The notes below the pieces were generated by a model. It was given only the letters and a program-made list of their open reading frames with translations. It searched no databases and was not told where the DNA came from. DNA of 62,764 nucleotides, the filler included, from Dugesia japonica (Eukaryota): assembly GCA_001938525.1 (NCBI GenBank). It is 5 parts of 5 records of this genome, joined end to end, with 100 filler letters (N's around TTAATTAATTAA, not from the genome) between each part and the next. Parts side by side here need not be neighbours in the genome. Positions count along the whole stretch, not along the records: positions 1 to 14,401 come from MQRL01631360.1; 4 more parts are not named here. The stretch is one strand, 5' to 3'. This document shows positions 2,161-57,399 of the stretch, piece after piece. The translations under genes and the position numbers were made by a program. The first letter of the stretch is position 1, and the number at the start of each line of letters is the position of its first letter.

Positions 2161-4475
2161 GTTGTGGAAAAGTTGGCTATATAAGAAGGTTATGTCAAGA
2201 AGTGAGGTGTAAACAATGTGGTAATGGTGAACATAGAGCAGAAGAGTGCTACACAAATTTGAAAATGAAAAGAACCAATGAGAAAATTTAGACAATTGAA
2301 TGCAGTAACGAAAATACAAGCCTTTCTTATGCCTAATGTCGATGAAATGCTGGACAAGTTAGGTGGAGCCAAATATTTCAGTTCAATATATTTAGGAAAT
2401 GCATACTATCAGGTAGAGCTCGAAAAAGAATCTCAGGAAAAAACGGCGTTATCAACGAAAAAAGGAAAATATTGTTTTAATAGAATGACATTTGACATCG
2501 CGGTGGCACCAGGGACATTTCAGGAGATTATGACAAAAGTGATTGGCGGAATCAGCGGAGCCATAGTTTATCTTGATGACATTCTGATATTTACGAACAA
2601 TAAAGATCAACACTTTGAAGTAATTAAAAGAGTATTGATGGAAATAATGAAGGTTGGTCGAAGAATTAATCCAGAGAAGTGAGTTTCTTCAAAGCAAAAT
2701 CAAATTCCTTGGACACATAATTAGCAAGGATGGTTAGAATTAGCAAGGTGTTAGAACTGATACGTCTAAAATAAAAGCAGTAAGAACATTTGGAAAACCT
2801 AACTGTGCGAAGAAGTTCCGAAGTTTCTTGGGAATTTGTAATTATTACAGGAAGTTTATAGAAAACTACTCTAGAAAATAAAAGATATTAGAGCAGTTGT
2901 GTAGCTGACTAAGCAACAAGAAATTAGAATGGACAGATAAAATCAACGATACTTTTGAGGGTCTGAAAAAATCTCTAATATCACCAATATTGTGTTTTCC
3001 AGACATAAACAAAGAATTTATATTAAATACAGATGCCAGTTTCGATACAATTGGANNNNNNNNNNNNNNNNNNNNNNNNNNNNNNNNNNNNNNNNNNNNN
3101 NNNNNNNNNNNNNNNNNNNNNNNNNNNNNNNNGAAAAGAGTTATTGGCTGTTTATTATTTCTGTATGCATTTCAAACATTACTTGTACGGTAGAAGATTT
3201 ACTCTTTGAACAGATCACAAAGCTTTAACTTTCATGATGACGACAAAGAAATCAATTACATCGCAATTCTAGACATGGATTATTTATCTGAGCAGTTTAG
3301 ACGTGGTTTTGGAATATAGAAAAAGAATTCAACATAGTAATGCAGATATGTTATCTAGACCAAGATGTGAGGTATGTGTATAGTGTCAAATGTCACATAA
3401 AGATGCCAAGAAAGTGGAGATTAAAACGAGAATACGAAACATAATCGAAAAGGACAAAGAAGATCAGTTAAACCTTTCTGAGTAAACAGATTTGATCTAG
3501 AAAATTAAAATTCCGGATGACAAATTACATGAAACAATTGAAGAAATACATAAATTATTATGTCATGCAGGAGTTGAAAAGGTGTACGAATATATGAGAA
3601 ACAAATATATNNNNNNNNNNNNNNGTAGCCAAATACAGAAGATAGTTCGAAGTTGTGAAATTTTTCAGAAGACCAAAGTAGTGACAACAGCAACTAAAGA
3701 GAAGACAAAGAGTTAAGAAGCTACAAATTTGTGTAAAGTGATATTCACAGACATATGTGGGCCAATGCGGGAGACAAGTGGACGAAAAAAATACATTCTT
3801 GGAATCATCGACGAGTACAGTAAATATCTAGTTCTTATACCATTTCCTAGACAAGACGAGGAAACAATACGAAAAGCTATTTTTGAAAGGTGGATACTGA
3901 GATTTGGATGTCCAAGAGAGATAAGATAAGATTGTGAAAAAGCTTTTGAATCCAGAGTTATGAGAGAGTTTGCACTGAAGCTAGATATTAAACTTTGCTT
4001 TTCGAGTTCATATCATCATAATGCAAACGGACAAATTGAGAGACAGTTCAGGACACTTCAAGATTTGATTAATGGAAATCTTTAGGAAGAAAAGACAACA
4101 GATTGGGTGGATCTTTTACCGGAAATAGAATTTACAATGAACGCAACAAAGCAGAAGACGACTGAAAAGAGCCCGACTGAGATCGTTTTTGGAAAGAAAA
4201 TTAGCAGGGAAAAGTGATATGAGTCAGACGTTTCAGATAGAATTAAAGAAAACATTTCAAACGTGATTACTAAAAGAGAATTCAAAGTGGGTGATTTTGT
4301 ACTCATCAAGGTAGAAACAAGAAATAAAAGTCAAGACAGATTTGAAGGACCTTATCGAATAATTGAGAAAATTCATGAAAGGTGGTATGCAGTACAAGGA
4401 GACAATAGACAGCGTTTAGAAAGAAATGTGGAAAAACTCAGGAAAATTCTTAAGAAGGGGGATATGAGGAAATAA
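2161..4475 (+). mobile_element. Degenerate Ty3/Gypsy LTR retrotransposon internal region (gag knuckles, RT, RNase H, integrase)
   Basis: CCHC-like knuckles CGKVGYIRRLC and RCKQCGNGEHRAEEC at ~2161-2260. RT: YYQV, APGTFQ, VYLDDILI. RNase H: FILNTDAS, EKELLAV, TDHKAL. Integrase: DICGP, IIDEYSKY, IERQFRT, FEGPY. Order is RT-RH-IN, with many stops and frameshifts and no protease. Confidence 0.93.
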
Positions 4476-4480
4476 TTATT
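4452..4480 (+). other. Polypurine tract and probable start of the Gypsy 3' LTR
   Basis: AAGAAGGGGGA at 4452-4462 at the end of integrase, followed 2 nt later by TG (TGAGGAAAT, 4465). Confidence 0.6.
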
Positions 4481-4783
4481 AATTAATAATCTCACCCAAT
4501 GGGAATTGAGATATCTAAATATTAATATTTAAATACTTGTATTTCATAATTATTTATCATATGAATTATAGTTCGTAGTAGTAAAATAAAAAATGTCTAA
4601 CAATATGAATTCTGATATACAAAATGAATTAACAATTGAAGATCTGTTAATGAGTAATTTATAATTTTATAATACTCTTGTTATAAATCTTTCATAAACT
4701 CTTGATCTTGTTTTACATCTTTAATAATCGCATTCATTTTATTAAGGTGAAAAATAAAGTTCGGACTTGCATGTCCGATTTTT

Positions 4784-6220
4784 TTAATTGTTAAAATAAC
4801 CAAATGGAAATCTATGAATAGGATTAATCATTATTCTTTTATCTTGAAATGAGTTTAATGCTTCTTTAGTTTGTTTAATTATTTTTATAAGATGTAATTC
4901 TGAATTTATTTTATAATTGCTTTTTGTTATTATTTTATTTTTCTCTAATGTATCTTTAAAATCTTTTAGTGTAATTGTGTCTTGTACAGTTTTAGTAACA
5001 CCTTTGAGTTTAATACAATTCTGGGACCCTCTGCGGTCAATGGTTTTATAATAATAACTTTTTGGCGCTAAAAATATTGCTTCATCTTTTTTTTTCCATC
5101 TTATTTTTTTCCCCATCTAATTCATCTTTAAATTTAAATAAATTAGAAGGATGAATGAAATCACCAAATTTATTTATTTCTTGTTCTATAGTCGAGTCAA
5201 AAGAAATTATTATTTCAATAAAAATTGAATCGGTATCAGTATAATGAATTTTATAGTTATTTAGTTTTTTATCAATACAATAACATATAAATCTATACAT
5301 AATTAATTTTGATATTTCTAAAATGTTAAATCCTGCATAATTAAATTTATCATCTTTTATAGTATTATTAAACAAATGAACTGTTGCTACATCTTCTGAA
5401 AAAATCATTTCTTTTTTAAATGTTGGTTTTGATAATAAATGTTTAAATTTCTTTGGATCAGTTACAATTTTTTTATTTTGCCTATTTCGTATATTTTCTA
5501 AAGTTTTTCCACAAAATGCATTACATAAAAGTGTAAAGAAATAATCACCAAATTTATTTCCATTTCTCTTTGATATTTTTCTTTGATTGATATTATTTTC
5601 TAAATAACCTTTTAACCATCTACTTTGTTTATATTTTATTTTTCTATGTATTTTAATAATTTTAATTCCATTATTTAAATACCATTTCAACATATTTTCA
5701 TCAATTATTTATTTTTCTTTATCATAATGTGTTAATAATAATTTTTCTGTTGGTTTATAATTGTGTGGTGTAATTGATTTTTGATAATTTGTAAATTCAT
5801 TTATATTTGGTTTTTCTTTATTTGGAAAAAATGGAAAACTTTTTGTTCTTTCTTTTATTTCTTGTGGATATTTTAAATCAATTTCATATGTAAATCATAA
5901 TTCTTCTGTTGATTCTTCAAAGTTTAGATTTGTATCTTTATCCTTAACAACCTATTCCATTTCTCCAGTTGGTAATAATTCACACATTGCAGATGAATAC
6001 AAAGAATTTGCATCATAATACATTAAATAATTTTCTTGAAAATATAATTTAAAGATTCTGAATTGTTTGTTTTTTTTAATCTTTGGTATCATTTCTTTAA
6101 ATAATTTATTTGTTTCTCTATTATTTGGTTTTACAAATCTATCTCTCAAAACTGAAGAAACTCCGCCTCTAATTAATTGTTCATAAAATAATAACATCAT
6201 AAGTATTTTCTTTATAATAT
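4784..6220 (-). pseudogene. Polinton PolB copy 1, C-terminal polymerase half
   Basis: IRGGVSS, YYDANSLYSSAM..LPTG, TLLCNAFCGKTLENIRNR, YTDTDSIF, KSY, KLKGV, DKR; frameshifted. Confidence 0.93.
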
Positions 6221-8807
6221 TGTTGGGCTGAAATACCCAGGCTGAAAAAAAGCCAAACAAAGGGCCAAAAGGGAAGAATTAATAAAGAAAAAGGATCAAA
6301 AGGAAAGTCAATTAGTAATGGGCATTTACGAGGAAAAGATATGGTAAATACATCAACAAAACGAAAGCACCAGAAATTAGTTATAAATAACCAGTATGGG
6401 TAAATTAAAAATGAAAAAAAATTAGAATACCAAGAAGATGGATAAAAAGATCTTGGATGGATAAATATCATTGATAATAATCAAAAGAAATTATGGAAAT
6501 AATAATAAAAATCGAGAAAAACTACAAGTAAGAAACCATTATATACCGAAAAAATATTAATTAATTTTTAAATAAAATAAAACAAAATTGGTCAAAAACT
6601 TGTTTTATACGAATAACTTTACTCTGCATAATTACAACAGCTTTTAGTAAGTAAATCTGAGAAGGGTTGGTGATGAAGCATTAAGAATGAGATACTAAAA
6701 AATCTTACCATCATCCAGAAGGTTGCCACAAGGATTTGAAGATTGGGCCAATAGGTGATCTGAAAATAAAAATAAAACAAAGAAATAATCATCACATATA
6801 CGCCAAAAATAGACGCCAATAAAAAGCATAAAAGTCCACGAAAAATCTGAAAAATTAACACCAAAACCAATAGTAAACGAGAATTTCAAAGTAAAAATAA
6901 ACAACCAATAGTAATGATGCCGGGTTGCAAAAGGCAGCGCCTTTTGGGGCAAGGAAATCATCAATTTTTGTGAAATCTATTAGCTAGTTTGACAGCGTAA
7001 TAGTAAACTGCTGAAAAACTCTATTGTGGAAAACTCTCAGCAAATCACTACTCATTATAAAGTGTAAGAGCAGTATTTCTATCAGTCATTTTCTAATTTG
7101 AATTTGTTTTGCAATTTTAGTAGAAGAAATTTCTAGTGGTAAAATCGAAAAATCTAGAAAACAGAAAGCTCATAAACGACAGATCTGCAATCAGCTCACT
7201 TTTAACGAAAATTATTAAAAGTAAGCATGTGTTGTTTGATTGTCTATTAAGTTTATGTACTGAGTTTTAGATGAGTAAATAATTGATAAATAAATTGTTA
7301 ATCATAATTTTCTTATTTTTAGCTTTGAAAAATTAATGGATAAGTTCGTATAACAAATTTTAGTTAGAGAAATAATTAATAAATAAACTGTTAACTATAA
7401 TTTTCGCATATTTAGCGTCAAATGATTAATAGATATTCTACTTCCGTCAATGCCGACTCAGCTATCACATACAATCATAGTAACCGACACCGCTGTTATC
7501 TACAACACATAGTGAGAACTACAATAGAAGACACGCTAGGCTCTCTGGATCATAAATAAAAAAGAATTCCCGACAGTCTAACCAACCACGCCTCATAAGT
7601 AATAAATGCAAACTTGACATTCACTTTTAGGGTTCAAAAGCACACACTACCAAATTATGACGTCATCCCATTTAAAGGTCAGGCATACACCCTCCTAATC
7701 GTAAGCAACACATACTTACCCATTATAACAATCACTGAATTCATTAGCAAAATCTGTTTTCTGGTTTACCACATCTGTGAACAGTAGTGTTCATTCACAA
7801 TTACTGACAATTATGTTACTTGGAAATTATGTATTGACATCGATTCGACCATTATCTCTGTGGTCGTTTGGTTTGATATAACTGAATTTTAATTTTAATT
7901 TTGAATCTACCATCATCAATTTAAGTAATTATTTACTTCAATATGTTGGACGTTAAGGACATGTACATTGACAGTACCAATATCGTCGCTATTAACCATA
8001 ATTTATGATCAACATAACTCAATCGATTATTTAGTTCATCATTTATGCGACTTCTTCCCAACCTGTCAGTGTTAATCGATTCCAAAACTTGTTAGAATTC
8101 TCACCCATTTTAACGATAATATTATCATAGCATCACAAATTTTATTTATTCACCATAGCCGTCATTTTAACATGTTATAATTGTTAAAATAATTTGATTA
8201 GGAGTTATGCTTATCAGAACGGGGTTCAATGAAGCTTCTATAAGGAGAGTTAATGTTATCAGTGTGACAGTTAAGGTACAAATAAGAACCTTACCAAAAG
8301 GGGTAATATTATGAAAATTTGCTCCGCTTTAGCACTGTCTGCTGCAACAGGGGATTTTGACAGCATTGCTAATCGAGGATTCTAACGACACCAATCCACG
8401 ACTATTTAATATCTACCCTATTTAGATTTGTCTTCAGAGCTAAGAGATGCCTTCAGAGTTATTCGGAAACAACGTAAAACCGTCAGACTACGGCAGTTGC
8501 TGGCTTAGATTCTATCGCGAGGTAGGATTGAACATCCCGGCGAAACAGACTTAAGTTGTTTCGTTGAAATGTTCCCTTTACCCTCCGGAGTGGATATAGA
8601 CGAGGAATTACCATCTTCAGTTCTATTGTGTTAAATGATAAAAAATATAAAATCAATTAATTTGCTCTTGACTTATTATAATCATTAATTATAAATTTCT
8701 CAATAAAATTTTGTTACATACTACAACAATACTATTAGATGACTAAATGATTTAACTGATTTTATTTGTTTTATGCTGCTATGTTTAATGGATCTTTACT
8801 GTTAGAA

Positions 8808-9227
8808 ATGGACTTTGTTTGGGAAACCTTATACGACCGTCGGACCTATAGGGTCGTTTTTAAAAGATATTGGAACCCACACGATCTCAATGCGGGAGTG
8901 ATGCGTGATTATACTAACTTACCACCCATCGACGTGGATAACGAAAGAGAGTGGGATGCATCCGAGCGAAATGCGTATTATGAATGGAGAGGCCCTGACC
9001 GCACACGGGATGTGCTCCACCGTTATACTATAACAAATGCAACGACGAGTGAGATCACTAGTGAGTGGAGGGATGGCCCCGCGTACCTACTTCTGTCTGC
9101 TGTGCATCTGACACCTAATACCAGGTTGCACGCTGATGTAGGCAACACTCTATGGGACTTGCGGAACAGCGCAAGAGGTGGATCGGCCGAGAACAACGCC
9201 CCGTACTCGGTCAACGAAACTCTATAA
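8808..9227 (+). CDS. Uncharacterised ORF inside the TGTT..AACA element
   Basis: GC-richer open frame of ~139 aa from ATG 8808 (MDFVWETLYDRR...), just after a TGTTAG acceptor-like site; no recognisable family. Confidence 0.5.
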   Translation: MDFVWETLYDRRTYRVVFKRYWNPHDLNAGVMRDYTNLPPIDVDNEREWDASERNAYYEWRGPDRTRDVLHRYTITNATTSEITSEWRDGPAYLLLSAVHLTPNTRLHADVGNTLWDLRNSARGGSAENNAPYSVNETL

Positions 9228-9429
9228 ATGCACCTAAATTTCTATTACATTTTAGCTGTCTGTTAAGGATAATAAAATTTTTTGTAAAATTTGATCTGAT
9301 TTTTTTCTTCTGGATCTTTGATTGACGAATAATTTGAAATTAAGCAGATGAATGTTCGATTGTTTTGTGAGATTTGAATTCTTAATCTAAATGTGTTTTA
9401 ATAGTCATGTTATTTTTTTATTATTCCAG

Positions 9430-10289
9430 TGCATTCGTCGTTAAATAGACCTCCGGTTTCTACCAAGAAAATAGGAGAGTCCAGTGATGAAGGTGAAATC
9501 ACATGGGACCTCTATAAACTGGCGAAGTGGCGCTGGGAAACCAATACTGCATCCGCCGAAGCCAAAGTTCGTTGTTACAAAAAGAAATGTCTAGCTTTTA
9601 AGACAGAGGCCGAGGCATTGCATAGCCAGCAAAGAGTTTGGAAAACTCAATTAGAATCGCTTACTGAGATCATCCGGTCCTACCAAGACCGAGAAAATAA
9701 ACTGATAGACGATATTTTTGAAATTAAGGAGGGCCATGCCGCTCGTGCCCCTTGTGGTGGACAAAGGAGTACAGACATACCGACCGTAAACGTTGTTCTT
9801 CATTTTTGGTTATAAATCATTTTCTTATTGACTAGATTTTTCAATTGATTCTGTCATTTATGTTCAAAATATTGTCTTGAATAAAATTTGGATTATGAAT
9901 AATGCCCTTTATTTATTGCCTAGAATTGCCTTCCCTAACAGCTTGAGGCGCTGCCACCGAATAATGCGTCACTTATTAATAGAAAGACATCTTAAGCGCC
10001 AAGCAGATCGGGCTCTCTTGAAGCAGCGCGACAAGCTAATCAAAAAATTAAATTTGATCATTAAAAAACAGAGTGACCTAGTTCGCCAGACCAAGGAGTT
10101 AGAAGATCAGGTTAAACAGTCGCTTTAGAGGAAAATAGATTTTCTAAAGCAGTACATTTCGAACATATCACGTCAACTGGGGAACCCAACGTGGGTACAG
10201 TGGGACGATAGTTATGACCAAGGGTACTTTATTTTTTAGTTACAGATCCGGCACAGTGGTTAGACCCTGGTGTTCTAGATGAATTGTAA
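9430..10289 (+). CDS. Spliced coiled-coil protein gene(s) inside the element (about three exons, one internal stop)
   Basis: GC-rich exon-like blocks (~9430-9785, ~9924-10222, ~10240-10289) bounded by AG/GT with AT-rich spacers. The helical peptide EIIRSYQDRENKL resembles EVIKIYADREASL at 25442-25711. Confidence 0.5.
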
Positions 10290-10538
10290 TTATTGAAATA
10301 AAATGTAGTTATTATTGATATTTTGATCGGTTTAATTGGTAAAATAATAAGGGAAAATAAGGAACCCGAAACAAAGATGTACGACTGAGAACCTTCCGTA
10401 AAGGTCGAAGGTCAACCGCTCTGCATTGAAGATCTAACTTAGGGGCGTTAGATTAAATTCTTGAAAGGGATCCCCTGAGGGCCCTTTTTTCCCATCCAAC
10501 GTTTACTTTTCATCATCAACTCAGGTGGAACCCCAACA

Positions 10539-12660
10539 ATATTTTAATTTTACATTTTTTTATATTTTAATCCACAGATCCATGTTAATCCAGGAGCAGA
10601 GTAACAATAAGAAGGATCAATATAAAATTTATTATTTGTTATATTTCTAAAGTTTTCCAAGTTATCAACTAAAAGTAATACACCAATTTTCAAATAACTC
10701 ATTGTATAATCTTTTATATTTTTACAATTTAATTCATTCCAATTTATTAAAGCTTGATTATATTCTTCTTCAGTAATATTCTTTTGTTTTATTTTATTAA
10801 AAAATTTATCATGAGAAGGTAATTTAGTTTCTTGCATAATTTCATTTATTTTATGAAACCTGCAGGTTTCGGTTATATAATCATATGGAAATATTCTTTT
10901 TAAAGGTTTCAGATTATATTTATTTAAATTTACACATTATTCTGGTTTTAAGGTTTTACCTAAATCTTGTAATGAATTTGGTAATAATCTTAAAGAGTCT
11001 GAAATTCTAATTCAACCAATTTGAAGAGAAATATATACTTCATCATTTTTACATAAAACATTTGTTCGTTTGGATTTAATGTCTTCTTTTAGAAATAATT
11101 TAGTAAATATTAAATATCAATCATATTTACTTCCATTATGAAAATACATTGGAACAAAATCAAATTTAGCTTTTAAGTTACAACTATTACAAGACAAACC
11201 TCTAAAGTTTCCATTGAAATTATCATGATATGTAACTATATTTTCTGTTAGCTCTTTATTACAATAATAACAATTACAAGTCTCTAGTTCTCTGAGGCTC
11301 TCGAAGATCCTAAAGTTGTTGATATTGGAATATTTGTTTTTAACAATTGTCGAAATTCATTTTCTAAAGATATAAATACATCAATAAACTTTTCTGTTAA
11401 ATCTTCTCCATAATATTCAATATATTCTGATTTTCTTAAATGTTCATAATTACTTGAAATATAAATTCCAAATGCCAAAGATTTTTGTTCGGGCCCCGTA
11501 GGGAAGAGATCTCCATTTAAATTATTAAAAGTCCGCAGTAATAATAAATGGAACTTTATTTTTAAAATGATGTTTATTAAAATATAAATATTTGTCTTGT
11601 TTCATTAATTTCAAATATATTTACTCTAATTCCATAGTCGTTTTCTTTATTAAAATGTTTTACATGATTAATTGAAACTGGTTCATCTTCTACAAAATTC
11701 ATTAGATTTTTAATTTCTTTATAGCTCTGATTATTATATTTTAATGAATTAATTATTGAATGATAAAAACATTTAATGTCATTGTAGCTTACATTAAATA
11801 AAAATTTTGATTTAAATGGTAATTCTTTAAATGTTCCACCTAATGGAGATGTATATTCACCAATAAACATTTCTATTGAATCTATATTTTGCAAAATTAA
11901 TCCACTTTTATTTCCTTCGTATTCTGTCATTCTTTTACTTAGTTCATTATATATTAATTCCATTTTATTTGTTAAATCTTCTTCATTTAAAATAATTTCG
12001 GCTGAAAAATTAATAATTACTGGTTCATCTTTTGTATTCCAATATGTACATTTAATTCTCATTCTTATTTTTAAATTATTAAATAAAGTTAAATAATGTT
12101 TTGCTGAGTTTTCAAATATTTCAAAAGATGGAATTGAAATTACTTCTTCTGTTTTTTCTTCTCTACTTGGAAATATTTGTTTTAAAGAAATTAATTTTTT
12201 ACTTCTTAATATATTTCTTTTGTTAATATTATTTTCTTTTAGATAATCATCAAACTCAAAATCATTATTTATTAATTCTCTATTTACTTTTCATACATTA
12301 AATAAATGTTCTTTTCCTTTTAAATGTTTTTATAACTCGTTTCTTCTTTAAAACCCTTTTCACAAATTTCACATTTAAATAATGTTGCTAAAGAACAAAA
12401 CTTTTCATGAGATAGTAATCCAGATTTACATTTGAAAACTTTGTTACATTTAAAACATTTAAATTCTTTTAGTTCTTTTTCTTTTTCTATTCCACACAAT
12501 TTTTTATGAGTAGTTAATCCAGATTTTGTTTTAAAAACTTTATTGCACTTTGAACATTTGAATTCATTAATAATTTCAGTTGGATTCAAAGGAAAACATT
12601 TTTTAGATTTTTTAATATGTTGATCTAAATCACTTTGTTTTTTAAAAACTTTATTACATT
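10539..12660 (-). pseudogene. Polinton PolB copy 1, N-terminal half (zinc fingers, OTU-like region, EndoVII-like insert, exonuclease)
   Basis: Repeats CSKCNKVFKTKSGLTTHKKLC; NDIKCFYHSI; CYYCNKEL..YHDNFNGNFRG..CNSCNL; YFHNGSKYD; IDPSYCYSAPGLTW. Confidence 0.9.
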
Positions 12661-13672
12661 TATTTCTAAAGAAAATATTTATTACAATTATTTTAATTTT
12701 AGATTTTAAATTTAGTTTTATTAATGAAAAGATGCGCGCATCAATTTTTTTTTAATTTTAATTTTTTAGATTTTAGTTTAAATTTAAATCCAAAGCTAGA
12801 GTAATGGCAAAGTGGGCGGCTTATGTATTTAGGCTGCTGCTATTAATATTTTTTTCTTTTATATGCGACGTGCTTGAAGGTGGTCATTTCAGGTGTCCGG
12901 TCAGCCCTCAGCTTTACCTAGGTGCTCCTACTTTACCTTTACTAAAAAATCTCAAAACTCGGATATTAGCGCTCTGATTTCTGTGCATAGATATCAGCTA
13001 TCGACTCAAATTTGGTATTATTTTACTCAGCAGGAAAAAGTAACTGTACAATGTTAAAATATCGTCTTGGGAAAAAATGCTTCCTAACTAATATGTACAG
13101 CCGCCCTCCCGGAATTCGGTAACAATTTTCGAAAATATCATAAGTACCTCAATAATTTATCGAAATTTATATTATTCGAGTGGGAATTTTACGGTGAGTA
13201 CGAATAACATAGTTACAAATCAACAAATTTTATACATAAAAAGTTATATAGAAAAAGCAAGTACTTTATTTGGAAGTCCCCGAGGAATATTAAAAATTAA
13301 TAAAAAATACAAGTATATATCAAAATTAAAAAAGATAACAAAATTTTTGAAACTAAATTTTATTTAATAAAAAATCTGATCAATCAGTCTGTTTAGTTTG
13401 TTATCTGGTTAACGTTTTCAAACTATTTTATATGATGATTATTTTTAGACTTTTTAATTGGTAATAATTTCAAGCTTTTTAGTTGATGATGACAAGGGTG
13501 TGTCCTTTCTTCATGTACATATATGTCTTGGGATAAAATAGTGTATAGTGAATATAAATAAACAACTTCTCGGGAAACCGCCATTTCACACTACTTGGGC
13601 TGTTGGTTTGATTTTTTAATTTTTAGATTTTTGGAATTTTGAAAAATATAATTATTTTTTAATCAATAAAAA

Positions 13673-14401: not shown

Positions 14402-14501
14402 NNNNNNNNNNNNNNNNNNNNNNNNNNNNNNNNNNNNNNNNNNNNTTAATTAATTAANNNNNNNNNNNNNNNNNNNNNNNNNNNNNNNNNNNNNNNNNNN
14501 N
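14402..14501. other. Artificial contig spacer
   Basis: N44-TTAATTAATTAA-N44 (stops in all six frames); the same structure occurs four times. Confidence 0.97.
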
Positions 14502-23390: not shown

Positions 23391-23490
23391 NNNNNNNNNN
23401 NNNNNNNNNNNNNNNNNNNNNNNNNNNNNNNNNNTTAATTAATTAANNNNNNNNNNNNNNNNNNNNNNNNNNNNNNNNNNNNNNNNNNNN
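23391..23490. other. Artificial contig spacer
   Basis: N44-TTAATTAATTAA-N44. Confidence 0.97.
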
Positions 23491-25441
23491 GGATAGCCAT
23501 TATTTAAAAATTTATTTTTTTATCAACTTGAGAGAGATCAATTTCATTTCTTCATTTGAAGATGGTCTCTCAGCTCGAATTAAATAAATAATCAAATTTG
23601 TTAGAAAATCAAAATAATTCGCAATAAATGAAAGCAAATTGTTATAATTGAAACTAAATTTAAATTTAATTTAATCAATAAAAAAATTGGATTTTAGAAA
23701 AATATTATAAATACCCCGGATAAAAATCAGATAATTATCTACGTGAAAGTAAACTTCCGATTCTAAATGGATGCACGTGAAGTATAAAAATACCTCCACT
23801 TCAAAAACTAGTATTCAATATAAACCCATCGAATCGCTCTCCTAGCCAGGTTGCAAAATATAAATCATTCAAATTCTCAATTCGGTCAGTAGGAAATTAC
23901 ACAGTATTCAATTCAACCACAATTTTAGTGAAGAAATTTTAAATTGACTCCCAGAAAACTCAACAAAACAATTTCTCATTCATTTAAATAGACAAGAGTC
24001 ACTAAAATAAAATTGTGTGCGATTTATCCATATTCTCTCCTGCCCAATCAGTATTGTGATTTACAGGGAAAACCAGTTCCAAGTTGGCGTGTCAAAAATT
24101 ATCATTTTATCCCGAATAAGTTTGCCATCCTTTCCCCACACTAGTCGAGTGCAGGGACAGAATCAATTAATCTCCAAATATTATTAACGCAACACATAGT
24201 CAAGAAGAAACTTTTCTACAATTGCAAGAAGTTTTCAGTGCAGAAACAAGACATAAAATTCTGTCAGAGTGTTTTTCATTCACTTTTTCATTCAGCAAAA
24301 ATTTTAAATTGACAACGAATTTCTAATTCAACGAGAGAAGAAAATAATCCGCCATATTGGTCACCATTTTGATTTCTAATAAGAATTTGTCTATTTTTAT
24401 TTAATTTTTGTAGCTTGGTTCGATCTCACCCGATTACTAAATTATGATTATCTTTTGAAGAAATAAGAAGAGTTTTTATTACCATTTGCTAGATCTTCCA
24501 TTAATTAAAGAAAGCAGTATCCATGAAAATTAAATCTCAGAATAAATAAATAGAATAGTTACGAGCCACGCCAATTTTCTTGTCAAGTACCACCTACAGA
24601 AAATATGACGAAAGAAAATAATATTCTTCCTAATATTCTAAAACTTCTTTTTTAGATGATTTATTTTACCGCTTTATAAATGTTGAGATACTTTGGGGGA
24701 TTAATTGCCAAAATAAATCAACAATGCGTGTTTAAATTATTGATTTTAATGTCACGATAATCCCAGTATTTTATGGTTATAAAAATTTCCTTATATGACT
24801 TAATATGTTTATTATAAATAAATCAATAGAATATAAATAAACTACATAGTGCTCCTTATTTTAAAGAATAAAGAATTAATTTTTAAAGTTATATCACAAA
24901 TTTCTCTACAGGTGTTATAAATTAACAGTTTGTTTATGCGTGGTTTTTGCAAGATAAGATTTTTAGTGAAATTGTGAAAAGATTCAAATTTATTTTCAGC
25001 TTTTAAAAAGGGTGAAAGTAATGAATTTTGACTCGGTATTTATACCAAATCGCTATTCATTATTCTCTCACGATGTTTGCATTAACTTTTCAAAACAAAT
25101 AAGCACCTTTTAAAAAATAAATTTGTTGGGTTTTTAGAATTTTGATGTTATGGTTTGCTATTACATTTTTACACTTTCAGTGTTCATTCAGTAAACAGAT
25201 AGGTCGTCTAGGAGCATACCTAAAAACCACAAGCGTTTGTGTCACCTCTGTGACATGCCCCTCTTTTCCTCAGGTTCAGCGCGACTTTGCGGAATCGCGT
25301 CTTACCATCGCTTTCTTGAATTCCAACTAACCTCTAGCTCATTTGCTCAGTATTTATTTATGATAATGGCAGCATAAAAATGGGTCATACATAACCAATA
25401 ATTACCAAATACCAAGCAACATGACAACGATAACGATTTAT

Positions 25442-25711
25442 TCATTCTACACCTACATCTAGGTCTACGGTATTATCCTTCACTTTTGACTCCTCGGATG
25501 GATCCCGATACAACAGCCACAGTGACCTCAAATTATTGAACAGTGACGCCTCGCGGTCGGCATATATTTTTATTACTTCGGCCATTAAGCAGTTGGCCTG
25601 CTGTAACGCTAGCTCCTTTTCTTTCAGCTGTTGATATTTGTCATTGTGCTTAGTGATTTGGCTCTTCAGCTGTAACAACTCATTTTTTGTGTCCGACGCT
25701 CCTCCTTCCAT
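25442..25711 (-). CDS. Coiled-coil ORF/exon in the second element
   Basis: NELLQLKSQITKHNDKYQQLKEKELALQQANCLMAEVIKIYADREASLFNNL; similar to the 9430 exon. Confidence 0.55.
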   Translation of the reverse strand: MEGGASDTKNELLQLKSQITKHNDKYQQLKEKELALQQANCLMAEVIKIYADREASLFNNLRSLWLLYRDPSEESKVKDNTVDLDVGVE

Positions 25712-26403
25712 TTTTTCTGCATCGATAGCACGTCCTTCATACTGACCTTACTTTCCGTTGTTTTATCCACTAAATTATAATGAGAATTAAGAAAATATTG
25801 GACACCACAATCGATTTAATTAATTAAATAACACCAATATTATAACTAAACTTATAATCGACTGAAATTTAAGAACACTGGTTTGTTAGAATCACTTAAA
25901 TACATGACTTATTATTGTTGCCCAGTTATCTCCATCTAATTCACCCATAATTATATAATTGCTTAAGAACGACATTTATCTGTAAAAATTTGTAAGTTTT
26001 GATCTCGGTAACAAAATTAAACACTCAAATATTATAACACAAATAAATAATATAAAAAAAAATAATTTCCTTTAACGAGGAACACCGATGACAACACCTC
26101 TGCCTCTGCAGTATTGTTTTACTTTACTTGTGACCTACATATCACACTCTCTAACTCGTATTAACAACAAAACAATTAACGCGAACTTTGCCATAAAATC
26201 AAAATTACACTGAGAAACTTTTATTAATATTAAATTTATTGTTCATTCGTATCCCTCTAATCCATCTGATTCTGGATTACTTCCCGCTCCTCGATCGCAT
26301 CGTCTGCCTCTGCAGCACTACTGAGTGAAAAAACACGAACGATTTTAGGCGAAGTGCTAGATAACTCCTCCTGGAGTTGTTTGATCTGGTTCTGTAGCGA
26401 CTC

Positions 26404-26637
26404 TCAAGCCCGTTCCAATTGACACTCTAACGCATTTATCAGATTATTTTTTACCACCAATTGTAGCCGGATCGTCTCGTTATCCGCCTCGAGGCTCTTG
26501 ATCTCATGAGAATGCCTCTCTGCTTCCGCTCTTATCATGTTCCTCACTTCGTTCCACTCAATATAATATCGGCCTACCTCGTCAATGTAGGGCCAGATAT
26601 AACNAGGCCTTTGGAGATTGCGTCTACCTTTAACCAT
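26404..26637 (-). CDS. Coiled-coil ORF/exon in the second element
   Basis: GC-richer frame with a heptad-like stretch (HEIKSLEADNETIRLQL...ALECQLERA) that continues helical past one stop. Confidence 0.45.
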   Translation of the reverse strand: MVKGRRNLQRPXYIWPYIDEVGRYYIEWNEVRNMIRAEAERHSHEIKSLEADNETIRLQLVVKNNLINALECQLERA

Positions 26638-27495
26638 CTAATAAACCAGAAACAATTAAATAAAGTAGTGAAATAATACGAGCACTAAGTTGACAAAATC
26701 ATTGCGGGTTAAATGTAGAATAATTTTCTTCGTAATATTTTACATGAATTCATTGTATTACCTAAATGGAATAATATAATGAATACAATTATAGGTGAAT
26801 TATTATATTATTGTTATCGTAACTGGCATAGTCAAACCTTTAGGTGGGATATTTTAATGATAATGTAATAATGTATAATTAGAAAAATTATGTTTAATTA
26901 TCAAATGAATTANTGAATAATTAGTAAATCAATGAAAGTTACTTTGTTCTGATACTTTTATTAACATTAAGTAGCTTATTAAGAACAATAAAAATAACAA
27001 AAATAAATACTTAGCTACCAAANNNNNNNNNNNNNNNNNNNNNNNNNNNNNNNNNNNNNNNNNNNNNNNNNNNNNNNNNNNNNNNNNNNNNNNNNNNNNN
27101 NNNNNNNNNNNNNNNNNNNNNNNTGCCAACTCATAATTTACGGATAATTCTACCAGATTCATTTTCTGGATTTTCTCTACGATAACTCTCATTTCTTTCC
27201 ATTCAGACTATTCGTGGCTAAGTAGAACCTTATAACATTTAGACATTCATTACTGGTCGGAATACCTCAGGAGCTCGATCCATCCCGGAAAATTTAAGTT
27301 TGGGCAATGGCACTCGTTTGCATAAATTCCAAAAAATAAAGTAAAACTATATATGAAGAATAAAAATTACTTTCAGTTTATCCAGAGTCCAAGATCCAAT
27401 ATTGAGAAATAATATTTTTTCACCAGTAGTAATTGATTTAATAATTTTTAACTTTACATCGTTGATTTATTAGTTATAGAATTTAATCAAACAAA

Positions 27496-27588
27496 CAAAA
27501 TTTTTTAATACTCTGCTTTTGAAAGTTAACCAAAAATTTTTTTAATACTCTGCTATAAAATTTAACAAAACTTTTTTTAATACTCTGA
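27496..27588. repeat. Three ~35 bp tandem repeats near the 5' end of the second element
   Basis: CAAAA(T)nAATACTCTG occurs three times. Confidence 0.75.
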
Positions 27589-29938
27589 CTGATTTCCTCG
27601 CGTCAGCCCGTTTTATCTCACCTAGGATAGATAGATTATTTGGCTCTCGATTAGCCGGCGAATCATGATGCTTATTTAATTATCTGGGCTTTCTGATTGG
27701 CTGCTATAGTCCTGAATTCGGTGTGCATACCTCAGTGTTTCTGCACACGAACTCAGACTTTTGAATTCTGGTAAATCTCGGTCATCACCTCATTTGACCT
27801 ATGTGATGCATCTGTTAGTTTCTAGGCAAAGTCCTTGTCTGAACGTCTGGCGAATAATCAGTTTCTTTGTTTATGTATGACTGCTATCATCAGATTCAGA
27901 CAAGGCAAAAAGATGACTGGACCAAAATTTACTTAATTCTCAAATAATATTAAACGCTAATTAGCGTTATTTATAATAAATAAAACGGGTTGTAGAGGTA
28001 CTTCTAATATATAATTATATTATTGTAGATTATTTTTATTATTTAATTCTTCATTCTCTTTCAGCTCTTATAAATTCTATTTCCGTATGATAAAATTTGG
28101 GTCCTCTACGCCCGAGTTTCGATATTTTGACAACTAATTTTATAATAATNNNNNNNNNNNNNNNNNNNNNNNNNNNNNNNNNNNNNNNNNNNNNNNNNNN
28201 NNNNNNNNNNNNNNNNNNNNNNNNNNNNNNNNNNNNNNNNNNNNNNNNNNNNNNNNNNNNNNNNNNNNNNNNNNNNNGGGACTACAATTTCTATTTCTGA
28301 ATGTGTTTTAGCCCAACAAATTAAAGAAAGTTCTAAAGATTGAATTTGTTAATAAATAAATAAAATTTCGTTTATGAAAAATTAAATAAATAAAATTCTT
28401 TTGATCTAAGCTTTTATATTATTTTGTTAAATTCATTTCGTTTGATTGAATATTAAATCANCAANTAAACAGAAAAACAGAAAATTTTGATTTCTGAAAT
28501 TAAATAAATGAAAATAGAATAACATAATAGAAAAATAAAATAATAAGACTAATTCACCAATTTGATATTTATAACCCTACTTCTACAGTTTCGTAAAATA
28601 AAATTAATAAAAAGAGATGATAAGATACATTCAGGGTCAGCAGATAATATACATATTGTCAGGTATTATAATGTCGATTGTCACACAAATATTGAAACTG
28701 TTGATCACTGATTTGGTTGATTTGGTAAAAATCTTGTCTGGAATCATTTGATTGATTTGATTCGAATATTATATTTTGTGTGTTATGTGTGCGTGCTTAT
28801 ATATTTATTATTGTGTATATTGTAGATTTATGAATATGTGTTTAAGGTTATTTTTCCCCAACATGAAAAGAAGATGCCATGATCAACCGCTACTAACAAT
28901 TCATCCTATAATTGTATTCACACGAACACTCGATTGTCTGATATCTAGATTTGATTGAAAATGAACAATGCTGTGATTTAATATTTATTATTCAATAAAC
29001 ATATTGGTTTATTGACGTTTATTTTACTTATTTTATTTATATAGAAGAGTGTGTGTTAGGTATGATCAATCAAGAGCTTCTATCGCTTTATGTAGATTAA
29101 TTAATTTATTTTGAACTCAAAGTGTATGGGTACACACCTTCACTTCCCGGAGGATTCANNNNNNNNNNNNNNNNNNNNNNNNNNNNNNNNNNNNNNNNNN
29201 NNNNNNNNNNNNNNNNNNNNNNNNNNNNNNNNNNNNNNNNNNNNNNNNNNNNNNNNNNNNNNNNNNNNNNNNNNNNNNNNNNNNNNNNNNNNNNNNNNNN
29301 NNNNNNNNNNNNNNNNNNNNNNNNNNNNNNNNNNNNNNNNNNNNNNNNNNNNNNNNNNNNNNNNNNNNNNNNNNNNNNNNNNNNNNNNNNNNNNNNNNNN
29401 NNNNNNNNNNNNNNNNNNNNNNNNNNNNNNNNNNNNNNNNNNNNNNNNNNNNNNNNNNNNNNNNNCAATAACACCAAATCGAAAATCCACAAAGGTTTAT
29501 ATGAATATTGACAATATATAATTTTCAAAACAAAATAAATTTTCGACAAAGCTTGGCGAATGTAGGTTTATCAAAAATGATAGTTTATTTTATAAGATCC
29601 TCAGAAAGTATATTGTTGTTCTATAATGTAGTAATTGAGAAAAAAAATAAAATAAAAATATGAATTTGAAGCTACAAAAGCTCAGAATGAAAAACACATT
29701 TCATAAATGTAAATTTGAATGTATAGAATATTGTAAATAAAATTGTAAAAACAAATTATGTAAAATAAAAATAATGAAATAAACAATTAAAAATTGATTC
29801 ATGATAATAAAAGTGCATCTAATAGGGAAAACATAAATGATAATTGATATAAATTGATATATTCAAAAACCTCAAATCATCATTAATAATGCGAGATATA
29901 TGGGGATTACCGACTATTTTGAGAGGAAATTGAGTTAT

Positions 29939-31547: not shown

Positions 31548-32749
31548 ATGAGTCAATTACCAAGATACGAATCAAATGATGACGAAATGGATTTTTTATG
31601 AACTGAGAATGTAAGAAATAAGAGTAGAAAAGTGAGAGATAAGTGGATTTTATGCAATAAGCATAACAATGCAAATGAAGCTACATTGTTTATCAAAAGT
31701 GAAAAAATATGGTCTTATTTCTACACAAATAAAACAACAGATGGAGATAAAGTTACTTATAGATAAAATAAAGTAAAAGCACATGAAACACAATGTAAAG
31801 CTCAACTATATTTATTATATCATGCTGAAAATGAAGATATTTCTGTGTATAAAACTACATGTAAAAATACCTGTAATGGTAGAAAAAATATTGGTTTACG
31901 AGATGACGTGAAATTATTCATAAACGAACAAATTAAGAGTGGTGTGAATAAACCAAAAACAATTTTATCAAACATTGAAAGAAATGGTTGGCAAGTTCCA
32001 AAAACAAATCAACTTAATAATTATTTAAAGCAATATCGTGAATAAAACTTCGGTGTTTCAACTATTAGTATGGGTGAATTAAAAAGATGGTGTGAATCAA
32101 AAAGTATATTTATTTATGCATTTATTTTATATCATGAAATTTGCGATAATGATGAGTGTGAGGTAAATTAAATAGACAGATTGATTCGGGGAATTTTTTT
32201 TTGGCAAATCAATAAAAAAGTAATAATTTNNNNNNNNNNNNNNNNNNNNNNNNNNNNNNNNNNNNNNNNNNNNNNNNNNTTCGGTGTTTCAACTATTAGT
32301 ATGGGTGAATTAAACAAATGGTGTGAATCAAAAAGTATATTTATTTATGCATTTATTTTATATCATGAAATTTGCGATAATGATGAGTATGAAGATATAG
32401 AGGATATATAAAATGATGATCAAAATTCAAAACAATATGTTCGTTTTTGTATTACTGCAAAACGTTTACTTCAAATTGCTTCAATTTCAACAGCAGTTCA
32501 CGCAGATACTACTTATAAATTGAATTGACAGGGTTATCCAGTATAAATAACAGGTACAACTGATGCAGATAGAAAATTCCATGCATTTTGTCTTGCAGTG
32601 TGCAATTGCGAAAAAGCAGCTGATTATAAATTTTTATTTGAAATGGTGTCAAAAATATTTATAACAAGGAATTCAAACCAAAAGTCATAATAGCAGACGC
32701 ATCATAGAAATGGTTTTGAAGCAGTTTTTGGAAATAATTACAAACGTAT
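31548..32749 (+). mobile_element. Mutator/MULE transposase pseudogene
   Basis: AVHADTTYKLN*QGYPV, GTTDADRKFHAFCLAV, FKPKVIIADAS, NGFEAVFG; has stops and frameshifts, and is cut at 32750. Confidence 0.85.
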
Positions 32750-32781
32750 TGTTGAGGTTCCACCTGAGTTGAGTGACACGA
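32750..32781 (-). mobile_element. End of a third copy of the TGTT..AACA element, inserted in the MULE
   Basis: TGTTGAGGTTCCACCTGAGTTGA matches the reverse complement of 10516-10538 (TGTTGGGGTTCCACCTGAGTTGA) at 22 of 23 positions. Confidence 0.85.
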
Positions 32782-32881
32782 NNNNNNNNNNNNNNNNNNN
32801 NNNNNNNNNNNNNNNNNNNNNNNNNTTAATTAATTAANNNNNNNNNNNNNNNNNNNNNNNNNNNNNNNNNNNNNNNNNNNN
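32782..32881. other. Artificial contig spacer
   Basis: N44-TTAATTAATTAA-N44. Confidence 0.97.
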
Positions 32882-33492: not shown

Positions 33493-36400
33493 TTAATTTA
33501 ATTTTCCTTTTAATTTATCTAATCTTAAATGCCACTGATTACAAACTTCACATTTAAATTTATTTCCATGAGGCCATGTTCTTATTCCATTATCTTCTAT
33601 TAATCTTTTGTCGTCATATCCTGTTAAAGCAATCTTTTTTTGCTCAAATAATTCAATTTCATGCTTATTTGATTTTAAACTATGATTAGTTCCATATATT
33701 ATTTCTTTTGGGTTACTTAAAACTTTATCATAATGTTCCATTTCTATTTTATTAGTTTTAGAAACTCCTTTATGTTTTGTTTCTATATTTCGGGTGTCGC
33801 CCCCGGCTTGAGCTACGCGATCCTGAATAATATAACTTTTTGTTTTAATAAAATTACATTTAACTATTTCAAAATTTGGTTTTTCATCTTTCATCTCAAA
33901 TAAATTATTTCCTAATAAACTTGTTACTTTGTTTAAATTCTCTTGTCCAATTATTTCTACAAAAATTGAATCTGTATCTGAATAATGTATTTTATGTTTA
34001 TTTGGTTTTGCTTTATCCATCTGATTATAAATAAAGTGGTAAATTACTTCTTTAGCATATTCTAAAATAGTAAATCCTATGTAAGGAAATTTATTATATT
34101 TTAATTTTGTTTNNNNNNNNNNNNNNNNNNNNNNNNNNNNNNNNNNNNNNNNNNNNNNNNNNNNNNNNNNNNNNNAACTAAATATTTTACTAGATTTAAA
34201 ACTAATTTTACTTGCAAACGTTTGATAATCTTTATCTGAATCTACAATTACAACATTATATCTATTTCTAATAATTTCTAATGTTTTTCCATAGAAAGCA
34301 TTATTTAATAATTTAAAAAAGTAATCTCCAAAAACATTGTTATTTCTTTTTGCTTCATTTCTTTGATCAATATTAAATTGAATGTAATCTTTTAACCAAG
34401 GTTTTGTTGGCATTTTATATTTAGAATGTACTTTTAATATTTTCATTCCTATAGATAAATATAAATCTAATGTTGATCCTAAAATAATAAAATTTTGTTT
34501 GTCAAATTGATTTAATGTTAATTTAATATTTTTCTTGCTCAACTTTTTATCAAAAAATAATTGATAAGGAGCCAACATTTCTTTTGTAATATTTAATGGA
34601 TCTGGTGCTAATGGAAAGTATTTTGTCTTTTCATGAATTTCTTGTGGATATTCCAAATCTACTTCATAAATGTAATTTATTTTATCTGATGATTTAGTAT
34701 AATTTAAGTCTCTGCATTCATAGATTTCTCCAGTTGGTAAGGGTTTAGTCATACAAGATGCAAATAATGAATTTTCATCTAAATATTTTAAAAAAGTTTC
34801 TTCTTTCCAATTTAAGGGATAAGTTTTATTTTTAATAAATGAAAATAATATATCTCCAACTTGTGCTTTGTTTAATTGTCTAGTTCTTCCAAATCTATTA
34901 TTTGATTTTTGGTTTTTTGAAAATACTTGCCTCTCTCCACAAACTCCTGAATATCCTCCTCTATCTCCTCTTTCAATTTTAATAAATCTGTCATAAGTTT
35001 CTTTTTGTGCATATTTTAATTTTACTTGAGTAAATTTAATTCCAGAATTCCAAGTTAGACCCGGAGTTGAATAACAATAACCGGAATCAATTTGATAATT
35101 ATTTAAACATGTTTCTCTAAAATTCTCAAAGAAATCAGCTAAAATAATTACATCTAGTTTCATGTAATGCAACATATAATCCCATAAATTATTAAAACGT
35201 TGGAAATCTTGTATAAATTCATTGTATTCTTCAGTTATTTTTTTTGTCTAAATATATTATTAAAATCTTCTTTTGTTGGAACTTGGTTACTTTTTAATAA
35301 TTCAATGACTTGATTAATATTTTCTCCTTTGGAAATGCTATTTTCTTTGCTTTTAAATTAAATGATTTTAGATGATTATAATTATTAGATTGATTTAACA
35401 TTTCNNNNNNNNNNNNNNNNNNNNNNNNNNNNNNNNNNNNNNNNNNNNNNNNNNNNNNNNNNNNNNNNNNNNNNNNNNNNNNNNNNNNNNNNNNNNNNAG
35501 TATGAGGAATTATCTTTTTAACTTTACTCGGATATTTACTAATTAATTCTTTGAAAAACAGATGATTATCATGACCAGATGCATTGTGAAAATAAAAAGG
35601 TATAAATAAATTCTTTATACATTTATCTTGTAAATTACATTTTGAATGAGAATTCCCTATTAAAGTGATCGTGATCAATTATTTCTTTATTACAATATTT
35701 GCATTTTAAGTGAGCTTGTAGGTGAGCTTGCTCACCTTCCCCAAGTTTAGGAACCTCTCCATTATAATATTTAATTAATTTATTTTCTTAAATATCTTTT
35801 AATTTATTATTTAATTCATTTAAAAATTCAAAGAACTCTTCATGAATATTTTCTCTTAAAAATTCTTTTTATTCATTTTCCGTTAAATTTGGATATTTAC
35901 TCACTACATAAATTCCAAGTGATAAAGGTTTTTGTTTCTTTGTATTAATATTAGTCCAACTTTCAAAGTCACCATAAACTACAAAAGGTAATTTGTTTTT
36001 GTAATAATAATTCTGATAATAATAACTAAAATGTTTTGAAAATATTATGTTTGATATTTCATGATTAATACATTCTTTCTGATGATTAATTAATAAATCT
36101 TTGCTATAATAACAATTCATACATCTAATATACAAATGATTTTGATGACTGTTTGTTGAATGAAATACTTCTACATTTCTACATAAAATAAAATGGTTTT
36201 TATAAACTAATAAATTACATTTATTCTGCTCTGGTTTGAGTTGAGTTTCATAATGAGAAATATATAAAGGTTCAAGTTGTTTAGACTCAGTTACAATAAA
36301 TACATTTACTTTAAAATCATTTAATTTTCCAAATTTTTTAACATAATCTATATTTACTGGAAATTTTATTCCATGGGACCCTTTGGAATTGGTTTTTATT

Positions 36401-37330
36401 TCATCTAAATATGGAATACATTTTTCAACTCTAGTTTGATGATCTTTAAATTCATGTTTATGTGCTAAAATTGAATATAGAAAACATTTTTCATCTTTAT
36501 TTTCAATATTAATTACTCCTGATTTAGAAAAAGGTCATTTACGATAAGATGATTTCCCTCCAGCCAAAGATTGATATTTTGATAATTCAATTTTATAATC
36601 AACAATATAATTTAAATTCCATCCAGATTCATTTCTATCTTCATCTTCCATAAATCTTTGAAGTTGATTTAAAATTTCAACAACACCTTCATTAATTCCA
36701 CTTGAAATTGTTTATTATTTGAATATGAATTCAAAATTCTTTCAACATTTTCACCATGAGACCCTTTGGGATTTACATCTTTATTATAATGAAAATTTAC
36801 ACTCATTCGAACAATAATCTTTTTCCCATAATTGAAATACTTGGTAATAATTTCTTTGATTTCAGTTTGAAATTCATTAATCATTTTTACTGGTCTTTCC
36901 ATTTGTTCAACATTTCTAGTTAATTCAACTTTACTTTCTTTAAAATATTCAATTTCATAGTTTTTGTATATTCTAAAAATACCTCAAATTTCTTGATCAT
37001 AATCAATTGCTTCTTCCCCATGTAATTCATAAATAATATTTTGTTGACCATTTCTTTATGTTTATTTGAATTTAAATGTGCTTTTGCATGATTTTGTCTT
37101 GAAAACATTTTGTTACAAACTTCACAATACAACGGAACTTTCTCTGAATTACCACAATTAGTGGAATTCAAATGTTTAGTCAAACCCCTCATAGATCTAA
37201 AAGTATTTAGACATTTTGAACAAGTAAATATTGCTCTGTCTAAAAGACAACATCTTGATCTTACATGTGCTGATAATCCTGATTTATTTTTAAAAACCAT
37301 TTTACAAAGATTATTAGGACAAATCAACTG
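33493..37330 (-). pseudogene. Polinton PolB copy 2, near full length, frameshifted in the N-terminal half
   Basis: Three N-terminal zinc fingers; ESGWNL and DEKCFLYSI; VVYGDFES; DHDH..SHSKCNL; FHNASGHD; then a 560-aa ORF with YLDENSLF, KLLNNAFYGK, YSDTDS, KHKGV, YDDKR. Confidence 0.95.
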
Positions 37331-38412
37331 AGTGCTAGATATTTTAAGTATAAACAATTTAGTTGACTAATTTTTTCTCCTGTTTTAACTTGGTTAATTT
37401 TATTTTCCAATAGCTCATAATTCAAAAAATCAAACCCAAAAGGACCCACCAAAAGACATATAACGAGTAATGGGAAAAAGGCGCTTTTACGACAGTGAAT
37501 TATCGTTATAATGTGCATTGGCATTAACAATCACAATTACACACCAAGCCCATGACAAATCCAAGCCAAAAACAGAGCTCAAGCTTTAAAGGCTTTATTT
37601 ATTAAAGTTGTTCCACTAATACCAAACTTTCTTTCCCTGGTAATGATCTTCCTCTTTTTCCTAATCACTGCTTAATTTCTGTTCCCCTGGTAATGAACTT
37701 TGTTATAGTACTAACGTTTATGCCGTTTGCTCGATTTTGAAGCTACCCCACTGGCGTAAAAGCTACCCCATTACTAATATCGTTTATGAAATGGCATGGA
37801 AGAACTATTATTCCAAAAATTATTTCAGTGGTTTATCGTTGAATTTTGAAGATTATCTCAACAAATGTAAATGTTGCCAATAGTCTGTTAAATTTATTCT
37901 CTCTTGAACTATTTATCGATGCAATGGAGGAAATATCAAACAATGAAATTATACTTTATCGCCATAAATTAGAAGAAACATAACAAGGCGGTCTACAAGC
38001 TCTTATTCAAATCCTATTTCTGGATAGTCTTGTAATACTCAGAAGAATAGAATTAATAGATAAGCTGAAATTTAATTCAGATTCATTGGAAAACATGACA
38101 TTTCTAATAGATAATTTAGTAAAATTTCCTAAACTTGAATTGTCAACGGTTGTAAATGAATTTTATGAGAATGCAAAAAAATTATTAATCAAAGAATTTA
38201 ATGACGATTTAAGTTATTCAAGTTCAGAACCAATAAATCAAACTCAAATGAATATAAAATTAAAGGCATCAACAATTGCAGTAAGACAGAAATATGGATG
38301 CAAAATGGAAAGAGATCCAAATACTTTAAGTAATCTTGGTTGCTTTAATAATCTATTTTAATATTATAATTTCAGTTGCCAAATGTCATGCAGAACAATT
38401 ATTGGAACATCG

Positions 38413-42133: not shown

Positions 42134-42233
42134 NNNNNNNNNNNNNNNNNNNNNNNNNNNNNNNNNNNNNNNNNNNNTTAATTAATTAANNNNNNNNNNN
42201 NNNNNNNNNNNNNNNNNNNNNNNNNNNNNNNNN
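42134..42233. other. Artificial contig spacer
   Basis: N44-TTAATTAATTAA-N44. Confidence 0.97.
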
Positions 42234-56493: not shown

Positions 56494-56705
56494 TTTATAT
56501 AGACACAAATTTGTTACCGTATACCATATTCCGTACTGTATTCCGTACTGTATTCCATACTGTAAACTGTATACTATACTGTAAACTGTATACCATACTG
56601 TAAACTGTATACCATACTGTAAACCATATTCCATATACCATACTGTATACTGTATATTCTGATTTTAAATTTATTATATACAACCTCAAATTTTATCTAT
56701 AGAAA
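56494..56705. promoter_or_regulatory. Repeat-built intergenic region between divergent genes (candidate bidirectional promoter)
   Basis: Array of ATACTGTA/ATACCAT/AAACTGT units between ATG 56493(-) and ATG 56706(+); both starts have an AAAATG context. Confidence 0.4.
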
Positions 56706-57371: not shown

Positions 57372-57399
57372 CTCAGAGCCAAAAGTAGTTTCTTAAAAA

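Follow-up and report, generated by a model that had tools for sequence, protein, structure and literature searches.

The long terminal repeats (LTRs) of retroelements are polar sequences with TG..CA ends that form a short inverted repeat, are flanked by 4-bp AT-rich duplications and carry a poly(A) signal whose distance from one end is fixed. Coding sequence can be part of them: the open reading frames (ORFs) of MMTV sag, HIV nef and foamy-virus bel2 lie in or reach U3, are expressed from spliced RNA and end at the LTR poly(A) site. Here we describe E1, a 4,318-bp insertion in the genome of the planarian Dugesia japonica (assembly GCA_001938525.1) that is likely a solo LTR and holds a row of short ORFs, together with two relatives, E2 and E3, all three located in a 62,764-nt stretch of joined contigs (hereafter, the window).

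Several described elements come close. Burro/GYPSM1, a giant gypsy lineage of dugesiid planarians, likewise belongs to an AT-rich, Polinton-bearing invertebrate and has accessory ORFs, tandem repeats and a combined LTR length above 5 kb; its internal region reaches up to 25 kb within a total of more than 30 kb, implying multi-kilobase LTRs (accessible part of PMC6431247). It differs from E1 in that its cargo (MATH, BIR, BCL2 and env) lies in an internal polyprotein or accessory ORF, and the same part of that source does not describe ORFs inside the LTR, a comparison made by description. A cargo domain of Burro1 is reported, second-hand, to aid planarian regeneration (PMC13465017, in part). The plant Ty3/gypsy Ogre elements have LTRs of 1.9–6.5 kb (PMC6431247, same part), a range that brackets the 3.2–4.3 kb of E2 and E1, and extra ORFs of unknown function; unlike here, these are plant elements and their extra ORFs lie in the internal region. 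Finally, Ginger1 and Ginger2/Tdd share with our inserts TGTNR ends, 4-bp duplications, a comparable size (2.6–7 kb) and, for Ginger1, the presence of introns, but they have long terminal inverted repeats (TIRs; 40–270 bp in Ginger1, ~50–180 bp in Ginger2), CCGG/CCGT or RTATAY targets and a transposase, none of which occurs in E1 or E2 (PMC2836005, in part).

A clean insertion and its relatives

E1 is a genuine insertion. The TGTTGGG start at 6221, the CCCAACA end at 10538, the inverted repeat of just 7 bp and the exact ATAT duplication were all found where the preliminary description of this locus, made from the sequence alone, had placed them.

6221..10538, + strand: E1, 4,318 bp, likely a solo LTR, with its cargo on the + strand
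6217..6220, strand not applicable: left target-site duplication, ATAT
10539..10542, strand not applicable: right target-site duplication, ATAT
5082..6216, − strand: host target, dead Polinton-type PolB, C-terminal portion (39% identical to a paralogue across 379 columns, E = 1e-50)
10543..12751, − strand: host target, same PolB gene, N-terminal portion containing C2H2 zinc fingers; broken

When the two flanks of E1 were compared as separate pieces with a paralogous PolB in the window (33493–35247), the right flank aligned to query residues 2–75, up to window position 10553, and the left flank to residues 92–455, from window position 6182. The 16-residue gap between the two alignments equals the 48 nt that remain after one copy of ATAT, so the insertion is clean and nothing was lost. 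The earlier proposal of a polymerase gene that rejoins on excision thus holds for the flanks, which are collinear with the paralogue, but the gene is otherwise dead, with three in-frame stops in the alignment of each flank plus frame changes. The GC content is 0.35 in E1 compared with 0.20 and 0.23 in the adjoining kilobase on either side. A TIR combined with a target-site duplication is weak evidence in this window, because a blind scan for TGT..ACA pairs with a TIR of at least 6 bp and a 4–6-bp duplication yields 110 pairs in such AT-rich DNA. Four G/C positions within the TIR occur in just 2 of these 110 pairs, E1 and E2, which also have the two largest GC steps. Pfam searches of 12 E1 frames returned no reverse transcriptase, integrase or DDE match, and tblastx found no match between E1 and the gypsy pol remnant of the window, in agreement with the reported absence of such motifs from the insert; the TG..CA ends and 4-bp duplications in turn support the suggestion that a retroviral-type integrase was behind the integration.

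E1 is part of a multi-member family of enzyme-less, 3–4-kb integrase-type inserts. The preliminary description had proposed that a lack of other copies with the same ends would count against a mobile element, and the same window holds two relatives.

25124..28318, − strand: E2, 3,195 bp including ~230 N, sharing the 7-bp ends of E1 and flanked by duplicated AATT
25120..25123 and 28319..28322: AATT duplication of E2
6221..6236, + strand: left terminus of E1, matching the E2 left terminus at 14 of 16 nt
10516..10538, + strand: right terminus of E1, identical at 22 of 23 nt to terminus E3
32750..32781, − strand: terminus E3, the right end either of another copy or of a sister family, adjoining GTAT in a transposase-like remnant

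The chance expectation in the window is 0.02 for the left-end match between E1 and E2, and 5e-9 for the right-end match between E1 and E3, a terminus into which the contig extends 32 nt before stopping. The ends are polar, left resembling left and right resembling right, with just 7 bp common to left and right. E1 and E2 lie in opposite orientations and are alike in layout; beyond their ends they have no further significant nucleotide similarity and thus represent distinct families. A further CCCCAACA end occurs on the minus strand at 28848–28863, 545 nt past E2, and resembles the left terminus at 12 of 16 nt. For TGTTGGG at 52386 and CCCAACA at 28863 and 58342, no partner with a duplication was found in the window.

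Short open reading frames of E1 and E2

The following features were located inside the two inserts.

7248..7433, + strand: tandem 93-bp duplicate (73% identity) with one GT..AG segment per unit, of 48 nt (7275–7322) and 53 nt (7363–7415); predicted leader mini-introns
7416..7784, + strand: GC-richer block with frames of just 47 and 62 aa
8330..8634, + strand: GC-richer block in which no frame exceeds 41 aa; its terminal stop is followed by AATAAA after 67 nt; possibly a decayed ORF
8808..9227, + strand: ORF1, 139 aa, open, with a T-rich AG 2 nt before the ATG; N-terminal 65 aa 48% identical to protein P0001
9430..9815, + strand: ORF2, predicted coiled coil, beginning after a strong acceptor (AG/TG); weak homology to the E2 last exon
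9786..9835, + strand: 50-nt GT..AG segment within the 9430–10289 block
9895..10289, + strand: ORF3 region, basic and coiled-coil-like, with an in-frame stop (10126–10128) and a frame change; last stop at 10287–10289
10297..10302, + strand: AATAAA, 242 nt from the right end of E1; predicted R/U5 poly(A) signal
26257..26637, − strand: E2 ORF A, starting at TTAG/ATG, coiled-coil-like, with one in-frame stop
25442..25769, − strand: E2 last exon, starting at AG/TG in the same phase as E1 ORF2, with one frame change; its stop overlaps AATAAA

The preliminary description had recognized in E1 four exon-like blocks with GT/AG borders, belonging to intron-containing genes. The blocks are indeed GC-richer, and acceptor-like T-rich AG dinucleotides precede the main blocks of E1 (TTAG/aaATG at 8808 and CCAG/TG at 9430) and of E2 (TTAG/ATG at 26637 and TTAG/TG at 25769), but the ORF blocks terminate in stop codons, not donors. 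The 9430–10289 block is not a single exon, since it contains a 50-nt GT..AG segment and in-frame stops, and the blocks at 7450–7790 and 8340–8630 have neither a frame longer than 62 aa nor a homologue. We prefer to see the arrangement as a series of separate short ORFs that each have an acceptor, a stop and an AATAAA of their own and for which splicing is predicted; in these features the blocks resemble alternative last exons rather than one spliced gene. The last AATAAA lies at a similar distance from the right end in both inserts (242 nt in E1 and 235 nt in E2); in E1, earlier AATAAA sites are located at 8702, 9271 and 9880. Whereas MMTV sag, HIV nef and foamy-virus bel2 are each a single ORF in an LTR of ~1–2 kb, E1 and E2 would have at least three acceptor–ORF–AATAAA units spread over 3–4 kb.

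Judged from its sequence, this cargo is probably coding. The long frames of E1 all lie on the + strand (155, 136 and 98 aa from stop to stop, with a maximum of 93 aa on the minus strand), and its three longest same-strand frames add up to 389 aa, a total equalled or exceeded in 5 of 500 block-wise dinucleotide shuffles. From a matching methionine onward, ORF1 is 48% identical over 65 residues (E = 1.8e-14) to P0001, an unnamed 94-aa protein encoded on a 512-bp ENA contig and the sole convincing relative of ORF1 among 1.84 billion representatives. The earlier statement that the cargo is unrecognised stands, and ORF1 together with P0001 makes up a small protein family devoid of any Pfam, Atlas or fold match. 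A single-sequence protein search with ORF1 left none of five candidates, alignment A1 gave 0 of 1,417 when compared with longer proteins and alignment A2 gave 0 of 20, and ORF1 had no match in Atlas, where ORF2 retrieved generic coiled coils. Two further candidate relatives of ORF1, P0002 (RTX repeats) and P0003 (T9SS tail), were dismissed because their similarity is confined to short stretches of repeated bacterial domains. The exact look-up of six proteins of the window matched none (0 of 6).

ORF2 and the E2 last exon may be homologous, a likeness that we rate as weak to moderate. As a single pair they reach a BLASTP E value of 0.002, which is not significant among the 64 pairs from which it was picked, and their frameshift-tolerant score of 49 was reached by none of 150 shuffles in each of two sets (0/150 and 0/150).

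AlphaFold applied to a two-sequence alignment yielded a predicted local distance difference test (pLDDT) score of 43, a fold prediction too poor to use, and the absence of Foldseek matches at E ≤ 0.001 in BFVD and PDB with this model is uninformative given its quality.

Origin of the inserts

We regard E1, E2 and E3 as rather probably the solo LTRs of a giant Ty3/gypsy-type lineage, whose LTRs would carry short ORFs predicted to act as alternative last exons. E1 and E2 have the TG..CA ends, the short inverted repeat and the 4-bp duplication around a single unit that characterize solo LTRs of Ty3/gypsy elements, and ATAT is the 4-bp target site of several Drosophila gypsy-group families (PMC3276498, in part). 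Of the two origins offered by the preliminary description, a very large solo LTR or a cargo element mobilised in trans, the former is favoured, because the ends are polar, an AATAAA lies 235–242 nt from the right end and the inverted repeat is far shorter than in Ginger elements.

Under the solo LTR model, a gypsy-type integrase would have placed a full element into an AT-rich site, producing the 4-bp duplications and TG..CA ends that are observed, and recombination between the two LTRs would have deleted gag-pol, so that one LTR stayed between one duplication pair. A promoter and leader predicted in the left third would be spliced to one of several acceptors, with each ORF ending at its own AATAAA, the last of which would be the R/U5 signal. 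The splice signals could have outlasted reverse transcription through the packaging of unspliced RNA or through an antisense orientation of the cargo relative to the genomic RNA. The present copies are decaying: E1 ORF3 and both E2 ORFs are interrupted by stops or shifts of frame, and ORF1 of E1 is open.

A number of observations weigh against this model. No full-length parent element, primer-binding site or polypurine tract was seen in the window, and all five of the five termini adjoin target DNA, a pattern equally compatible with solo LTRs and with stand-alone units. A sense genomic RNA would have to stay unspliced and to pass several internal poly(A) signals, which would need to be suppressed, a problem that an antisense cargo would avoid. 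The occurrence of AATAAA within 67 nt of 6 of 6 chosen ORF stops, compared with a background of 0.15–0.21, speaks for the model, but these stops were chosen post hoc at GC-to-AT transitions, next to AT-rich spacers, and the test is biased upward. The longest E1 ORF by itself was reached by 19 of 500 shuffles, and the likeness of the E1 and E2 proteins, when no frameshift is allowed, by 100 of 5,000 full and 261 of 5,000 heptad-preserving shuffles. Lastly, E1 and E2 resemble each other over their last 250 nt no more than shuffled sequences do (548 of 1,000 reach the score), and these segments fold no better than shuffles (z of 0.87 and −0.62).

Alternatively, though this seems unlikely, the inserts could be stand-alone, enzyme-less gene cassettes of 3–4 kb with polar, 7–16-bp integrase attachment ends, having neither a long TIR nor paired LTRs, which a gypsy-, Ginger- or Polinton-type integrase would move in trans as DNA and which would thereby carry through an invertebrate genome an array of small genes, subject to alternative splicing and each polyadenylated separately, that encode an undescribed protein family. 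Introns would be easily kept by such a DNA route, as would splice and internal poly(A) signals, more readily than by way of RNA; all five termini adjoining target DNA and a layout common to two diverged families also speak for it, as do the TGTNR ends, 4-bp duplications and, in Ginger1, introns of Ginger elements (PMC2836005, in part). Set against this, the TGTTG ends and 4-bp duplications shared with Ginger2/Tdd are accompanied by a TIR of 7 bp, the duplications are ATAT and AATT, not CCGG/CCGT, and the target 6-mers are AATATT and AAATTA (n = 2), not RTATAY. The polarity of the ends and the constant spacing between one of them and AATAAA are, moreover, LTR-like.

Two other explanations appear less likely still. 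The inserts might be internally deleted LTR retroelements made up of a piece of the 5' LTR, a 3' accessory-gene region and a short 3' LTR, the ORFs then being internal extras; invertebrate LTR elements do have extra ORFs expressed from spliced messages and deletion-made partial copies (PMC5408684, in part), but E1 has neither a terminal direct repeat nor an internal copy of either end, and the same layout recurs in two independent elements, making this origin improbable in our view. Even more doubtful is a viral origin, in which the inserts would be a segment or satellite integrated from a DNA virus, for instance a hitch-hiker that depends on Polintons. The many Polinton genes of the window, the position of E1 inside PolB and a cargo that is GC-richer than its surroundings would suit it, but E3 sits in a transposase-like remnant and not in a Polinton gene, and no relative was found in IMG/VR. 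Polintons (Mavericks) have AG..CT ends, long TIRs and 5–6-bp duplications, from which E1 differs both in its ends and in the length of its duplication.

If the inserts are solo LTRs, every recombination event would leave the host with a complete multi-gene expression unit, beyond a mere promoter; in this way, accessory genes of retroelements could survive the loss of gag-pol and become available for co-option. How a full-length RNA would be made and packaged from an LTR that contains several acceptors and poly(A) signals is a further, testable question. If, on the other hand, no parent element exists, inserts of the E1 type would represent a new kind of non-autonomous element.

Database searches and the surrounding window

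Pattern searches confirmed none of 390 matches in JGI metagenomes and none in IMG/VR (0 of 378 and 0 of 19), and the right-end motif gave 0 in both collections. A left-end 20-mer in contigs L001 and L002 was dismissed as a chance match inside a phage-like gene, these contigs having no other similarity to the window. An ORF array inside an LTR is not described in the accessible parts of PMC5408684 and PMC6431247, within a literature scope that excludes the primary Burro papers, Repbase and Dfam, and the supplements of PMC11410931, one excluded, contained no match. The element may well be present already in a repeat library as a plain LTR. Among 24 sequencing runs listed, 7, from three studies under one organism label, contain part of the window (share 0.23–0.42), and no RNA run is among those listed as containing it.

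The window as a whole (GC 0.26) contains Polinton genes and mariner and gypsy remnants in AT-rich eukaryotic DNA. It is built of short contigs joined at 100-nt gaps (14402–14501, 23391–23490, 32782–32881 and 42134–42233, with TTAATTAATTAA mid-gap), and neighbourhoods across gaps are therefore uncertain. A Polinton/adintovirus-type block at 56023–62593 encodes a double-jelly-roll capsid protein, an A32-type ATPase and an rve integrase to which a PLA2-like domain is fused. Of two further PolB-type genes, the one at 33493–37366 (− strand) has an uninterrupted frame of 584 aa and, upstream of it, zinc fingers, and the one at 46843–48527 (+ strand) is linked to the first by a 71% inverted match. 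Reading TGA as tryptophan in PolB, as in the code of an organellar plasmid, was rejected, given that the paralogous ORF is open over those 584 aa under the standard code and has TGG tryptophans.

Other mobile-element remnants include a decayed gypsy pol at 2250–4500 (RVT_1, E = 1.8e-19), which ends in a purine tract followed by TG and belongs to a family other than E1, with no similarity to it, and a Mos1-like mariner remnant at 44490–45740 with 38-nt inverted ends (44455–44492 and 45704–45741). The transposase-like remnant at 31600–32749, MULE-like by eye, ends at terminus E3 and had no Pfam match in the three frames scanned. The sole Rfam match (1163–1262, eukaryote level) falls in an 18S rRNA fragment at 1120–1350, which may be flatworm-like, and a copper amine oxidase exon at 45851–46102 is the only clear piece of a host gene among the 43 frames scanned.

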